DNA of 64,000 nt. Origin: Phycisphaeraceae bacterium (GTDB lineage Bacteria; Planctomycetota; Phycisphaerae; Phycisphaerales; Phycisphaeraceae). Positions 39,001-45,000 of this stretch are shown here, one piece after another (the stretch's first letter is position 1; each line of letters begins with the position of its first letter). Position numbers: made by a program. Where the stretch lies: contig OY771506.1 in NCBI GenBank assembly GCA_963674705.1, forward strand, positions 1,120,001-1,184,000, given 5' to 3'.

Positions 39001-42000
39001 ATAGTGTAGCGGGGGTGTTGGGGTCTGGGGTTTAGGGTCCGGGGTCTGGCAAAGCCAATGCGGCCGAAGCTGTGAGGTGGTTTGTGTGGGTGCCGGGCTT
39101 ATGGCACTGCCGGTCTCCCACTTCCGACCAGACCCTAGACTCCAGACCCTAGACCCAACACCTAAATCCGCTTTATCAGTACTGATATTCAAGATTCGGT
39201 GCTGGTGGTCCCGATAACTGGCAACAGGGTTGATACGGTTGTCGGCCCCTCGAAGCGCCCGGTCCGGCTCTGACGTGTGAGTTGGCCGGCGGGTTTCACG
39301 GACGAAAGGCCCGGTTGTGCGAACCATTGCGATCATCAATCAGAAGGGTGGATGCGGCAAGACGACTTGCTCGATCAATCTCGCCGCCTCCCTGTCCGCC
39401 AAAGGCAAGCGCACCCTGCTGGTCGATATGGACCCGCAATCACATTGCGCGATGGGGTTGGCTGTGCCGGATGCACAGATCGACAAGTCGATCGCGGACA
39501 TGTTGCGAGTCGGTCTTGACGGGTCGCTTGCGATGTCGGAGATCACTTGGCAGATCGCGCGTGGGTTTGACCTTGCGCCGTCGTCGATCATGCTCGCTGG
39601 GATCGAGGCCCAACTGAACACCGCGCCGGACAAGGATCGGCGACTGGTGCAGGTCCTGTCGACGGTGCAGGACCATTATGATTTTTGCATTATTGACTGC
39701 CCGCCATCGATCGGGCTTTTGACGTTTAACGCGCTGCGTGCATCGGACGAGGTGTTGATCCCTGTCGAGACGGGATTCTTCTCGATGCAGGGTGCGGTGC
39801 GGCAGCAGCAGACGATCCGGATGCTGGCAAGGCGTGCGGGGCATCACGTGCGTTTCAGCGTGCTGGCGACGATGTATGACGTGCGTACGAAGCTGGCGCG
39901 TGAGATTTTGAGTGAGCTTCGGCGGCACTTCGGCGAAGACCTTTTGCCGATCGTGATCAACTTCAACAGCAAGCTGAAGGAAGCGGCGAGCTTCGGTCAG
40001 CCTATCACGGAATACGACGCGGCCAGCCGGGGCATGCAGGATTTTGAACGGCTGGCGGACTGGCTGTTGGCGAACCCGCCGGCACCGATGGTGTTCCCGT
40101 CGCAGGGTTTTGACGGTGAGCAGCCGATGCAGCAGCCCGTGGTGCAGAGCCAGAGCATAAACCCGGCGATGAGCCGGGCGGCGGAGCTGGTGGAGCGTGC
40201 CCGTGCGTTATCGACGCGGACCGCGGAATTGTCGTCGCGGCTGGCCAGTGATGAAGATGCACAGGCGGAAGGTTTTGCGCCACAGGCTCCGCATATTCCT
40301 GCGATGCCAAGCCCGCAGCCGTCGCCACAGTCTGAACAGGCGCCCGCACAAGCGCCGATGTCGAGTCGGCTGGCTCATGTGGAGCCCGGGGCGAGTAAGC
40401 CGGTGGTTCACGAGGTGCCGGACAGTTTTGAGAAGAAGCTGGCCGGGCTGTTTGGTGCCCGGCATACGGCCCAAGGGCTGCTGTTTATTCAGCCGGACAC
40501 CAAGGCGAGACAGGTCGCGATCGCGGGTGACTTTAATGGCTGGGACCCGGCGAGCACGCCGTTGAAGCGTGATTCGAACCTGGGAGTCTGGCAGACGTGC
40601 GTACCGGTGCCGCCGGGCCGATACCGCTACCGGTTGGTGGTGGATGGGCACTGGGTGCAGGACCCGTACAACAGTTATGTCGAGTCGAATCCGTTCGGCG
40701 AGTTGAACAACATCGTGGTTGTCGCATAGGCTTTGTTGTATCCCACGGAGGGACCCGGGGGTTCGCATGCCATGGAGGGCGGCGAGGAGAAGTACACGAA
40801 CAACCATCGGCGGTCAGTCATGGACGACACACGCACGCAACAAGCCTTGGACGAGTTGGCCGATCTGTTTCTCACAGGTCAGGGGCCGAAGTCTGCATCG
40901 GCTCAATCCGAGCCGGGTTCCCCTTCTGCTATTGATGATGAAACGGACGGTTTGAGCGGTCCTGCGCCGATCCGGCTTGGGCCCAAGCTGCGGTCGACGG
41001 CTGCGCCGCGTCCGGTTCAGCCGGTTGAGCAGGACGAGTCGGATCTGGACGAGACGCCGTTGCGTCTGCATACCGACGACGATGATGATGAACCGGTGGG
41101 CTCGATCGGTATGGATGAAGAAGATGAGTACGAGGTGTTTGAAGACGACCGTGATGCGCTGCTGGAAGAAGTAGAGCACGACGAGTTTGAAGAAGCCTCG
41201 CCCGGTTATGCCGTGGCGGTTGAGGCGGTGATCCTGGGGAATTTGCCGGGATTGAGCGGGCCGTGGTTGACGCAGTACGCGCAGTTGCTGGCTCAGCAGG
41301 AGGGGCCGGTCGCGATCCTGCATGTGGATGACGACCTGATCGACCTGGAACTGGTAGAACCGACCAGCCAGCAAGGCAGCAGCCGGGGCGTGTCGCTGCG
41401 GATGGCTCCGGGCGGCGGGAAGCTGGACCCGGTGACGGTGCTTGAAGCATTACTGGATTCAACGGACAGCGCGCCGGGGACGATCCTGGTGCATCTTGAT
41501 CCGCAGAATGATGAGCAGGGGCTTTCGCGTGCGTTAATGATCGAAGACTGGACGCTGATGAGCGGCGCGGATGACCTGGCGGTCGTCGGCGGGTACCGCA
41601 TGCTCAAGACGATGGTCGAGCAGGACCCGGCGGTCGCTTCCAAGCGTGTCGGGCTGATGGTCATGGGCTCGGACCCGCAGGTCAGCCAGGAAGCGGCGCG
41701 GAAGTTCCAGACCGCGGCCCAGAGTTTCCTGAATACGCCGGTACAGTTGCTTGGCTGGCAGAAACAGATGGTGCCGGTGAACCTGCGTCATCTCGGGCGG
41801 TTCGAGGATGTGGATTCGGCGTGGCCTCGGTTGGCGGACTGGTTCGATGCGTACGCGGCGACCGAGCCGATGGTCGTGGATCAGCCGGTGATCCAGGAAG
41901 AGCCGATCGAGCAGCCGGTGTATCGATCGACGGTCGTGCGTGAACCTAAACGTGAAGTCGAGCCTGAACCTGTCAGCGAGGTGGAAGTCGAGGAGTTGAT

Positions 42001-45000
42001 CGAGCAGGCAGAGCCGGAACCGATCCGCATGCCGGAGCCGGTGATCCGCAGGCCGCTACCGCGATTCGAGCCGAGATCGCGACCAGTTGCGCCGCCTGCT
42101 GCTGAGCAAGCAGAACCCGAAGTCGAAGAAGTAGAACCGCAGCCGGTCGCGCGTGAACCTGAGCCGCAGCCGGTTGAAGCGGCAACTCAACCCGCGCCAG
42201 AACCTGCGCCGCAGCCCGAACCTGAACCGGTCGTGCAGCAAGCGCCGCAGCCGGTCGCTGTTCCACCGTCGGTCGAACCCGAATACGAAGCGGAAGAATA
42301 CGAGATCGAAGAGCCGGACCTCGTTGAACTGTTGATGGCTGGTCCCGGTGCTGTGCCGGGCGGGATCGCGATGGAAGCGCGCTGCCCGCATCAGCCCAAT
42401 ACGCAACTCATGCTCGATCAGGCCGGCCGATTGCACCTGCTGTATTACCACGACTCGGAAGAATCGGGTCTTGACGGTTTGCAGCCGGCGATGGTCGATC
42501 TCTTGCAGGCCCGCAAGTGGGTGCATGAACATCTGCAACTGTTGCAACTGACCCAGCGCCAGTTGAAGTTCGATACCGATGCTGAACCTGTTTTACACCT
42601 GTTTACCGATCGCGCGGACTGGGGCACAGCCCTGGTGATGCGTGTCGGCGGATCGTTAAAGCTTCACCTGCTTCAGGCCGTCGAAGTCGGCGGCGAGGTG
42701 GCGTGGTTCTGCACACCCTTGAACTAAACGATACATCCCTGCACCGTCTTCCTTCCTCCCACCGCACCGGATTGCCAACACCCGGCAACTTCCGGTGCCG
42801 ACGGAAATCACACGGATTAACGACGGCGCAGCAGTGTCACGCCGCACATCAACATAAGTACTGCCGAAACGGGTTCGGGAATGGTAGTTATATCGGTTGC
42901 TGGGGGTGTGCCGACGTTCCAGTTGTTGAGTACGAGGTCGAGGTCTTCGAGGAAGATGTATCCGTCCCCCGACGCGTCGCCGGCTGACGAGTCGCCCGGA
43001 TCGGTGTGGGTAAGCCAGTTGTTCAGGATGATCTCCAAGTCTTCCATGCCGACGAATCCATCATGATTCAGGTCGCCGGTCAGTCCTAATTCGAAGCGGA
43101 AGATGGCTTCGTTGCCGTCGTTTATTTCAGCGTTGTATGTCAGTTGACCAAGGTCATTGATCGCGGACTTCCAGCCATTTTCCGCTCCCGCGCCTTGGTG
43201 CATGAAAAGGATATCGATCCCCCAATGTCCTTCCAGCGCGACCAGGGACAACTCCCCGTTCGGCTGGCTGACCCAGATGCTTTCCAGCGTTGCGCCATCG
43301 GGGCCGATCAGGTTGTTCTCAAAAACAATTTGTCCTGATCGGTTCATGATGGGTTCACGATAGAACTGGTTGAAGTAAAAGCCGGGGTCGGCGCCGGGCG
43401 CCGGATCACCTGCACGGACGATTAATTCCAAGGTGCCGCTACGGTTTGACCACAGGCCCGAATTATTGGTTTCATCCGTACCCGGCCCGCTAAGGCCGGC
43501 AAAGAAGGCGATCCGCCCGCGTTCATTGAGAACGGGTTCGTACAGGGCAAGCTCCCATGGGTTGGCCGGGGCGAACACCTGGCCGGGATCGGCTCCCGGG
43601 GCCTGGTCGCCCTCGCGTACTAACAGGACGTCGGCAACCGTGCTTGAAGACCAGATGCCTTCATCGTTGGTTTCATCTACACCCTCCCCGGATAATCTGG
43701 CATTAAATACAACTTGCTCGTAGTGGTTGAAACGGACCGATGAAAAGTAATCTGCGAAAACAGCGGACGTACCCGGGGCCGGGTTCCCCGTGCGTGCGAT
43801 CAGGTCCAGCGAACCCGAACGCTCGGCCCAGATGCCGGCGCTGTTGGTATCGTCGATGATTTCCAATTCTTCCGGGGCGGTGAGTGAAGCGCTGAACGCG
43901 ACTTGCCCCGACTGGTTGATGATCGGATTATCGGTGAACCCATCGAAGACAACTTCTTGCTCGGTTCCCGGCGCGTGGTTGCCTGCCCGGGCTACGACCC
44001 ATAACGAGCCGACCCCGCCCGACCAGATACCCATGTAGTTCGTCGCATCGACTCCCGGCCCTCCCAGCCTGCCTCGGAAGGCGGTTTGGCCGTTCACATT
44101 GGTTGCGAGCTTGTAATAGTTCGGGCTAAAAAACAGGCTTTTGAAGTACACACCTTCACCGGTGCCGGGGGCGTGATCGCCATCGCGAACAAGCAGGTCG
44201 AGTGAGTCATCACGCGCAATCCACAGGCCGCTGTCGTTGGATGAACTGATGTCCGGGCCGATCACCGACGCAACGAAGGCGACCTCATCGCCGTTGTAGA
44301 CCACCGGATCACTGATAAGCTGGAAAGTGATATCTTCATCTTCATCGGGGGGTGATTCACCACGCAACACCGTCTTCTCTAAAACCCCACCGCTGGTCGA
44401 CCACAAACCGAATTGGTGGCCGGTGTAAGTTGCCTTGAACGAGACTTCCCCGGTATTGCTGATTGACGGGGTGAGAAACCCGGTGAACTCAACCTCCGGA
44501 ACGCCCGGCACAGCGCGACCGGTGTAGGCAATCACTTCGCCCGGGTAGGGAACCGCGTGTGCCTCTTGCCCACTGCCTGTACCGATACAGAACAGCGCCA
44601 GGCCCATCAATGTCCTGCGAACGGATGTGTTTAACATGGAAAGCCCCCATTCGATAGATGCTTGCCGGATAAACCCCGGCGGTGTAATACCAAGCCGATT
44701 GAACATCGGATCTATAAAATTGACGTTTTTAGTCTATCAAAGCATCGTCTGGATACAAGACAAATTCAGCCGAACACCGGCTTCTGACCATGACGTCTCT
44801 GTATCAACCACAGATTTGTCATAGAGAATATCCCGAGTACGGCCGGTTCGGGGATATTGGCGACATCGACCGGCGGTGGTGTGCCGTTGTTCCAATTAAC
44901 GAGGATGATGTCCAGGTCATCGAGGCCGACGAAGCCGTCGCCGCTGGGATCGCCCAAGTTCCACGCGCCGGCGGTGACGTTGGTGTTCCAGTTCTTGAGA

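Follow-up and report, generated by a model that had tools for sequence, protein, structure and literature searches.

A ParA–CBM48 Fusion and Its Downstream Partner

The window analyzed here, a stretch of 64,000 nucleotides from a Phycisphaeraceae bacterium (contig OY771506.1), contains two neighboring genes on the forward strand. The first (39317–40729, 470 aa), hereafter the fusion, encodes a ParA ATPase joined to a C-terminal CBM48; the second, its partner, ends at 42727, and its homolog-supported start, the ATG at 40820, is probably the true one and gives a protein of 635 aa. The features recognized, with the evidence for each, are:

39317–40075, + strand: fusion, ParA/Soj-like ATPase domain, residues 1–253 (KGGCGKTT, DMDPQ, Walker B, basic residues)
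40076–40441, + strand: fusion, Pro/Gln/Ala-rich linker with a conserved stretch, a predicted helix, at residues 282–299 (62-row alignment)
40442–40729, + strand: fusion, CBM48 of the AMPK-beta type (AMPK1_CBM match, PDB match, alignment to AMPK beta1)
40820–40879, + strand: partner, N-terminal helix RTQQALDELADLFLT, predicted peptide for docking on or activating the ParA dimer (model helix, conservation)
40880–41206, + strand: partner, disordered region 1, acidic with 31% Asp+Glu (model, alignment)
41207–41854, + strand: partner, pseudo-ATPase with an FlhG/FleN/MinD fold, residues 130–345 (structure search with the model)
41855–42301, + strand: partner, disordered region 2, Pro/Glu-rich with 23% Pro and 24% Asp+Glu (model, alignment)
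42302–42727, + strand: partner, C-terminal domain with a restriction-endonuclease-like fold, predicted inactive, residues 495–635 (model comparison)

A promoter scan returned no sigma-70-like site and four terminator-like ones, against 3.5 expected, and was uninformative.

The two-part composition of the fusion, already reported by the survey of this genome, was confirmed by domain searches (AAA_31, residues 1–174, E = 1e-48; AMPK1_CBM, residues 395–469, E = 1.4e-12, above the cut-off) and by PDB matches to both parts, the top one being ParA/Soj for the ATPase (8ray, E = 1.5e-45) and the closest ones AMPK beta CBMs for the C-terminal module. The deviant Walker A (KGGCGKTT) is accompanied by DMDPQ and a Walker B. 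All 120 best listed homologs (55–96% identity) carry PF16561, as reported, and all retain KGGxGKTT, hence the KGGxxK[ST] signature of ParA/MinD cargo-positioning systems, along with D37, D39, P40, Q41, R190, R195, and K219. Residues R190/K192/R195 and K219/K221 are predicted to bind DNA; R190 and K219 align with what we take to be Soj R189 and R218, the numbering having been matched from motif position. On these residues, the ATPase is predicted to have the basic C-terminal face that serves non-specific DNA binding.

Mean pN/pS among 10 close relatives was 0.07 for the ATPase domain, 0.15 for the CBM, and 0.44 for the linker, ratios that compare regions only, because pS values are near saturation. 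The linker, described as flexible, is indeed rich in Pro, Gln, and Ala, but residues 282–299 are conserved (R287, A288, E290, L291, R294, and A295 each in 54–57 of 62 rows), so that it is not flexible throughout.

Residues W100, K126, W133, L146, and T148 of AMPK beta serve glycogen binding. As read off the alignment with AMPK beta1, W409, R439, W446, F460, and N465 of the fusion correspond to W100, K126, W133, L146, and the next Asn, and E462 occupies the position of T148, so that four of the five have equivalents. F406, N407, and W409 are kept in all 120 listed homologs, which raises the earlier count for the conserved FNxW motif (119) by one, and W446 is kept in 119. Among distant homologs, both tryptophans are invariant (77/77 each) and R/K439 nearly so (76/77), and the W/R/W set is present in all 35 class (Phycisphaerae) members. 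Judged by its residues, the sugar-binding face of the CBM is intact.

The partner had been described as a degenerate ParA/MinD protein without Walker A and without a family, with a conserved N-terminal helix. Each of these traits stood, but a second, nuclease-like domain (495–635) had been overlooked. Searches of Pfam and NCBIfam gave no match, and recognition in the ESM Atlas stayed below threshold, with none of the 30 hits assigned to a family. The model matched 4rz2 (Foldseek, E = 1.4e-6), structural comparison of the pseudo-ATPase gave Z = 11.9 (rmsd 3.7, 169 aligned), and a partner profile run against this genome found FlhG as the next match after the partner itself (E = 6.6e-7), which suggests a derivation of the pseudo-ATPase from FlhG/MinD. 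Its P-loop is replaced by LGNLPGxxGPW, and GK[TS] occurs in the P-loop window of none of the 55 aligned rows. The C-terminal domain resembles PaqCI (8em1, Z = 9.4, rmsd 3.1, 120 aligned), 2vld (Z = 8.0), and 2okf (Z = 7.8), and the strand following D533 holds no ExK, the motif position being deduced; both the ParA fold and the nuclease fold of the partner are predicted to be inactive. Neither domain search nor model comparison found a glycan-binding domain in it.

The most conserved part of the partner is its N-terminal helix (residues 4–18 in the model; L18 in 55/55 rows; pN/pS 0.05 in the 10 close relatives).

Occurrence and Inheritance

A single copy of the fusion is present in 37 of 51 Phycisphaerae genomes. 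In a quick maximum-likelihood tree, all seven multi-genome families are monophyletic (supports 96–100), as they are in the ParB tree, a pattern of vertical inheritance; the FastTree trees of ParA clades and of ParB are midpoint-rooted and so prove no direction of gain or loss. At the 80 Phycisphaerae loci, the fusion is flanked by housekeeping genes (Maf in 50, LpxK in 45). The CBM and partner counts given earlier (74 of 80 loci, 70 of these 74 with the partner) were superseded by a recount: 76 of 80 include the CBM, three of the others being cut by contig ends and one having a split frame, and 63 of the 76 have the partner directly downstream, five of the remaining 13 ending within 1.2 kb. 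The partner adjoins the fusion in 24 of the 37 carrier genomes; 11 carriers have an intact CBM and no adjacent partner. Both Poriferisphaera-like genomes keep the partner after its relocation away from the fusion, and none of the 14 non-carriers has it at full length.

Beyond the class, the fusion occurs sporadically across phyla. These relatives were studied through a neighbor scan of 103 chosen ORFs, and 150 further proteins from a protein-representative search were used only as alignment rows. At 4 of the 16 distant loci, an alpha-glucan enzyme gene lies no more than two genes away: L142, L145, and L166 have a GH57, and L141 has a GlgA-like half gene. Given the close kinship of the three GH57 loci, this amounts to about two events. 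The CBM-less relatives L147, L148, L154, and L161 branch from within the clade of the fusion and have the same partners; the tree suggests repeated loss of the CBM in lineages that retained the partner. There are at least four partner bodies: a pseudo-ATPase combined with a nuclease fold, a nuclease fold by itself, a small soluble domain, and a membrane protein for which an outer domain is predicted.

A ParB-Like Peptide and the Relation to ParABS

The N-terminal helix is the part common to all partner types, including those without a pseudo-ATPase. The proposal that the pseudo-ATPase acts as activator is for this reason not supported; it is instead the helix that is predicted to dock on or activate the ParA dimer. 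In distant relatives, the helix starts with a motif like one of ParB that we label LGRGL. The motif was found in 8/13 distant partners, 29/35 ParBs, and 15/4583 background ORFs, with a search pattern drawn up after the sequences had been seen. Of the motif's role in ParB, the literature supports no more than an N-terminal arginine finger. In the Phycisphaeraceae helix, the RG of the motif is missing, the partner N-terminus in this family is not clearly basic, and 0/35 ParB N-termini score on a matrix of this helix.

One alternative is that Phycisphaerae use the fusion, together with the orphan ParB, as their functional ParA for chromosome segregation, glycogen being coupled to origin segregation. 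The nearest solved structures (8ray, 1wcv) and the DNA-binding residues are those of ParABS. As the survey had noted, the genome has separate ParA and ParB genes: parB lies ~630 kb from the fusion with no ParA beside it, and the second ParA lacks the arginine equivalent to R190. Moreover, the LGRGL-like motif of distant partners also occurs in 32 of 33 ParBs from the class, and ParB lies within 6 kb in 4/80 loci. On the other hand, ParB and another Soj-like ParA are retained in all 14 of the 51 genomes without the fusion, the fusion coexists in G215 with a separate ParA adjoining ParB, and the fusion, which is not next to parB here, forms its own clade, separate from the ParB-adjacent Soj clade (support 95, FastTree). 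We therefore consider a role as segregation ParA improbable.

Glycogen Genes and the Nature of the Cargo

Of the glycogen genes reported earlier for this genome, the synthase proved to be a GT3 enzyme, GlgA and GlgC remaining under the thresholds used; the GH57 enzyme, of branching type, and two matches to phosphorylases were recovered. Some alpha-glucan machinery is present in 36/37 carriers vs 13/14 non-carriers: fusion presence does not track glycogen genes, and this co-occurrence is non-discriminating among genomes whose kinship makes them non-independent. A glycogen enzyme lies within 6 kb at 1 of the 80 Phycisphaerae loci. An apparent group of about 15 carriers without any synthase was dropped, as each of the five tested has a GH57 directly beside a GT5-like match. 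G232, a 98% complete MAG with an intact fusion, gave no match with nine glycogen-family queries and yielded a single weak GH13 match. With this genome and the CBM-less relatives that keep the partner, glycogen as obligatory cargo is not supported.

These two observations also speak for a pair that positions or regulates another target (cell pole, division, or motility machinery), the CBM being an accessory anchor or a sensor of carbon status. The derivation of the partner from FlhG/MinD and the existence of a membrane-protein partner with a predicted outer domain are consistent with such a role, as is the regulatory nature of the AMPK CBM, through whose glycogen binding the enzyme is controlled (PMC2642990). 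However, no gene for another cargo is a conserved neighbor among the recurring clusters identified, the CBM is intact in the 11 carriers without an adjacent partner, and distant loci are flanked by glucan enzyme genes. A different target seems rather unlikely to us, though it deserves serious weight.

In the literature searched, we found no report of glycogen granules in Phycisphaerae and no positioning machinery for glycogen. In Escherichia coli, glycogen condensates can lie at the old pole, displacing the nucleoid and the division site (available text of PMC12706056).

A Published Immune Prediction

The gene set, initially thought absent from the literature, is described in a 2026 preprint (10.64898/2026.10.19.760177), whose available text presents a "CBM-containing system" (ConB5) in which ParA-CBM is accompanied by an inactive ParA and an inactive REase. 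It predicts an immune function and has a rapidly diverging CBM among the traits of the system. Both architectural traits of ConB5 are found here: a ParA with a C-terminal AMPK1_CBM and, as in its variant two, a linked inactive ParA and inactive REase, the inactivity being predicted. The upstream single-TM protein of variant one is likewise found at eight of our loci. As far as that text goes, the differences are that the two folds are here predicted to be on one polypeptide and that the partner has an N-terminal helix, of which section 29 makes no mention. The string "Planctomyc" is absent from the main text as available, and the supplements may list Phycisphaerae members.

According to this proposal, the CBM would detect an infection-linked carbohydrate or glycogen depletion and cause ParA to multimerize (10.64898/2026.10.19.760177). 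Besides the exact architectural match, the nuclease-like fold modeled in the partner, the sporadic spread over phyla, and an AbiEii toxin gene ~3 kb from L145 speak for it. However, the CBM does not diverge rapidly here (mean pairwise identity across 33 genomes 48% vs 44% for ParB; low pN/pS), none of the best 80 viral-contig matches reaches into the CBM, a CBM search of plasmids gave only a GlgB, and no active effector domain was found, PADLOC returning only a P-loop fragment. Because the fusion is also single-copy, vertical, and flanked by housekeeping genes, with both sugar-binding tryptophans invariant in the 77 distant homologs, our tests argue against immunity and point to a housekeeping role; an anti-phage sensor strikes us as very improbable.

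A Proposed ATP-Switched Tether for an Alpha-Glucan Store

The intact DNA- and sugar-binding residues, vertical inheritance, ParB-like peptide, and distant glucan neighbors make a housekeeping ParA/MinD-type system that binds alpha-glucan the best-supported class of explanation. To this extent the survey's reading of a glycogen-positioning pair is supported; the activating pseudo-ATPase, the obligatory glycogen, and the novelty of the gene set are not. Within this class, we lean, at slightly less than even confidence, toward an ATP-switched tether that holds an alpha-glucan (glycogen) store on the nucleoid. Extrapolating from ParA biochemistry, ATP would dimerize the ATPase, and the dimer would bind DNA non-specifically and present two CBMs to glycogen; docking of the partner helix, in the manner of the ParB N-terminus, would trigger hydrolysis and release. 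The location of the partner, on DNA via the nuclease-like domain or at the membrane in the transmembrane variant, would therefore decide where tethers stay or break. Glycogen held on the nucleoid would so be spaced and shared at division.

As the available sections of PMC11407121 and PMC10241942 describe them, McdAB, which positions carboxysomes, and other ParA/MinD cargo systems share with this pair the deviant Walker A, the basic C-terminal DNA face, and a neighboring partner whose N-terminal peptide is conserved. They differ in that the cargo module is here on the ATPase, that the cargo would be a polysaccharide, and that the partner has a pseudo-ATPase and a nuclease-like fold and an N-terminus that is not clearly basic. 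PhaM, PhaF, and PhaH (PHB granules) and AlgP (polyphosphate) are nucleoid tethers in which, as proposed here, a single protein bridges a storage granule and non-specific DNA, but they are not homologous to ParA, and no ATP switch is known for them (available text of the review PMC13052382, in which the term "glycogen" is absent). Because the cargo module is on the ATPase and not on the activator, the present system would have more in common with a PhaM/PhaF-type tether, made switchable, than with the McdAB ratchet.

We tentatively propose, with a confidence that falls somewhat short of even, that this would be the first ATP-driven placement and inheritance of a bacterial glycogen store, in which a ParA grips both glycogen and DNA and has as its switch a ParB-derived peptide, borne by at least four unrelated partner bodies, in Planctomycetota, Omnitrophota, Desulfobacterales, and Zixibacteria, and that the system has been misread as immune. 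If true, this reading would extend the ParA/MinD family to polysaccharide as a cargo and to an inverted design, with the cargo module on the ATPase.

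The ParA-CBM fusion protein and its distribution

The locus comprises two adjacent genes:

39317-40729, + strand: fusion ORF, 470 aa; Soj-like ParA domain, then a C-terminal AMPK1_CBM (Pfam, over cut-off)
40820-42727, + strand: partner ORF; ATG start at 40820, supported by homologs

The nearest solved structures to the two parts of the fusion are ParA/Soj and AMPK beta CBMs. As claimed in the survey's finding, both parts are present in 120/120 of the homologs listed, and Walker A is conserved throughout; the CBM residues F406, N407, and W409, the DxDPQ motif, R190, R195, and K219 are invariant in the same 120/120. 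W409 and W446, the alignment counterparts of AMPK residues required for glycogen binding, are invariant in distant homologs (77/77). Computed over 10 close relatives, pN/pS comes to 0.07 in ParA, 0.15 in the CBM, and 0.44-0.69 in the linkers.

Upstream in the window, short intergenic repeat families (34780-35069, 36924-37121, 38202-38330, and 38932-39162) form inverted pairs around genes, and frames within them extend into adjoining sequence. Downstream, three long ORFs (42817-51811, - strand) share a dockerin-like and PEP-CTERM-like C-terminus (first ORF, dockerin E 0.0017).

Across 201 genomes of the phylum, matches below 1e-80 were limited to Phycisphaerae (this genome, G000, and 13/13 others), the best match outside the class reaching 6e-59; one out-of-class match, in G034, is a ParA-CBM fusion, and further fusions turned up among clusters or proteins that carry Omnitrophota, Desulfobacterales, and Zixibacteria labels. 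The class sample comprised 51 genomes with a completeness of 95% or more; 37 of these (carriers) encode a single copy and 14 (non-carriers) none, the absences clustering by family.

The gene set, on which the survey's finding reported no paper, has in fact been described: a preprint (bioRxiv 10.64898/2026.10.19.760177) presents a ParA-AMPK1_CBM system that comes with one of two extensions, a single-TM protein encoded upstream or ParA and REase proteins that are both inactive. On the grounds of "rapid divergence of the CBM", it predicts that the system serves as an immune lectin sensor. The window locus corresponds to the second variant, except that both predicted dead domains lie on one polypeptide. 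A positioning role was not found for the pair in the literature searched. We consider an anti-phage lectin sensor the least probable of the readings. One AbiEii gene near a distant locus speaks for it, and one integrase fragment likewise lies near a distant locus; however, the fusion tree (quick IQ-TREE, 37 rows) recovers 7/7 multi-genome families as monophyletic, as does the ParB tree, and mean identity over 33 genomes, which for ParB is 44%, reaches 48% in the CBM and 54% in ParA. Moreover, the recurring neighbours are Maf, LpxK, an HldE-like kinase, DnaJ, and ClpB, none of the best 80 of 122 matches in viral contigs reached the CBM, and a plasmid search returned GlgB as its sole result.

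The partner protein

The partner model (pLDDT 73.8) comprises a helix (residues 4-18), two domains (~130-345 and 495-635), and acidic disordered linkers. The FlhG/FleN/MinD likeness claimed for the first domain was borne out in the model by an FlhG/FleN match (E 1.4e-6, Z 11.9), and flagellar FlhG is the next match of the partner profile within G000; the second domain, as modelled, resembles restriction-endonuclease-like folds (PaqCI Z 9.4; 2vld Z 8.0). In 10 close relatives pN/pS is 0.05 for the N-terminal helix and 0.22 and 0.24 for the two domains.

The earlier count of 74 CBM loci, 70 with the partner, had to be revised: the CBM is present in 76/80 related loci, and the partner adjoins in 63/76. 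In the 37 carriers it is adjoining in 24, uncertain in 2, and not adjoining in 11; two Poriferisphaera-like genomes have relocated yet retained it, and it was not found in two others tested in that group. In partner-less carriers (L165, L168, L169, and similar loci) the ATPase gene is in some cases followed by one for a secreted P-domain protein. Among the 14 non-carriers, the partner profile gave weak matches alone (E > 1e-8), in 4/14.

A metagenome scan retained 80 loci, 22 of them fusion loci, whose partners have diverse bodies and a common N-terminal helix. A ParB-like start motif, a pattern chosen after inspection, occurs in 8/13 distant partners, 29/35 ParBs, and 15/4583 background ORFs. 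Scored with a matrix trained on the Phycisphaeraceae helix, the N-termini of 8/8 TM-partners rank within the top 0.9-3.5% of background (modest evidence, as they form one family), and 0/35 ParBs exceed the 99th percentile; since the matrix ranks TM-partners high and no ParB, and distant partners carry the ParB motif, helix and ParB would be linked via intermediate forms. N-terminal peptides are a described route of action for ParA/MinD partners. The proposal that the pseudo-ATPase is the activator is not supported, because partner types differ in body and share the helix; from these sequences we infer that the helix, rather than the pseudo-ATPase, would be the switch.

Other ParA-partner arrangements were observed. 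Some class members (L101-L107, L109) encode a third, Soj-like ParA in a further ParA-partner pair, in which the next gene has a conserved SGL.K.I..IF-type start peptide that leads into a disordered region and, in many cases, a hydrophobic stretch. Two ORFs following a ParA (L160:1625-2872 and L162:7773-9074) combine a ParB-like KKxLGRG/LARG start peptide with an apparent FtsZ/tubulin-type GTPase (VVGVGGGG motif, by eye). In other planctomycetes (L124, L128), a MinD/FlhG-like ATPase with intact Walker A immediately precedes a CBM-less member of the fusion clade; this could be the state from which the pseudo-ATPase partner arose.

Relation to the chromosomal ParA and ParB

That the fusion is the chromosomal ParA of the class seems improbable, as fusions and their CBM-less kin form their own clade, apart from ParB-adjacent Soj and the second ParA (FastTree, 98 rows). 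ParB and another Soj-like ParA are present in 14/14 non-carriers. The G000 ParB (C1:1792884-1794070; C1 is the contig) is an orphan ~630 kb from the fusion, with two parS-like palindromes just upstream, and the GC-skew minimum (~941 kb) lies far from it. In the second ParA of G000 (C1:1263336-1264526) the N-terminus is long and rich in Pro and Gln, and the sequence contains an internal insertion. This ParA lacks an arginine equivalent to R190, and for this reason the fusion may cross-talk with ParB, above all in partner-less carriers.

The link to glycogen

In favour of the link, the glycogen genes recovered in this genome include a synthase of the GT3 family, a branching-type GH57 enzyme, and two matches to phosphorylase. 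The distribution over the class counts against it: classical GlgA was found in 0/51 class genomes. The eukaryote-like GT3 synthase occurs in 27/51 (21/37 carriers, 6/14 non-carriers), GlgE in 3, phosphorylase in 47, and a GH57 cluster in 41, in most of the 51 with a GT5-like neighbour. Some glycogen machinery is found in 36/37 carriers vs 13/14 non-carriers; also against the link, in the draft genome G232, which has the same position in both trees, the fusion is intact and the pathway was undetected.

A glycogen enzyme lies near only 1/80 Phycisphaerae loci, in agreement with the reported lack of such neighbours and again against the link. In its favour, among 16 distant loci, judged from their linker lengths and types of partner to lie outside Phycisphaerae, an alpha-glucan enzyme gene lies at most two genes away in 4/16, about two independent events: a GH57 gene is near L142, L145, and L166, and a GlgA-like half gene directly follows the partner in L141. 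CBM-less relatives of the fusion retain partners, which counts against the link. Ranked second, and rather unlikely, is a system that positions or regulates another target and has glycogen as its anchor or signal.

Judged from sequence, this is a real, ancient, and vertically inherited ParA subfamily, with an intact predicted alpha-glucan-binding module and a peptide-bearing partner. In what we tentatively regard as the most likely reading, the ParA-CBM ATPase and its partner would tether glycogen to the nucleoid through an ATP-switched link.
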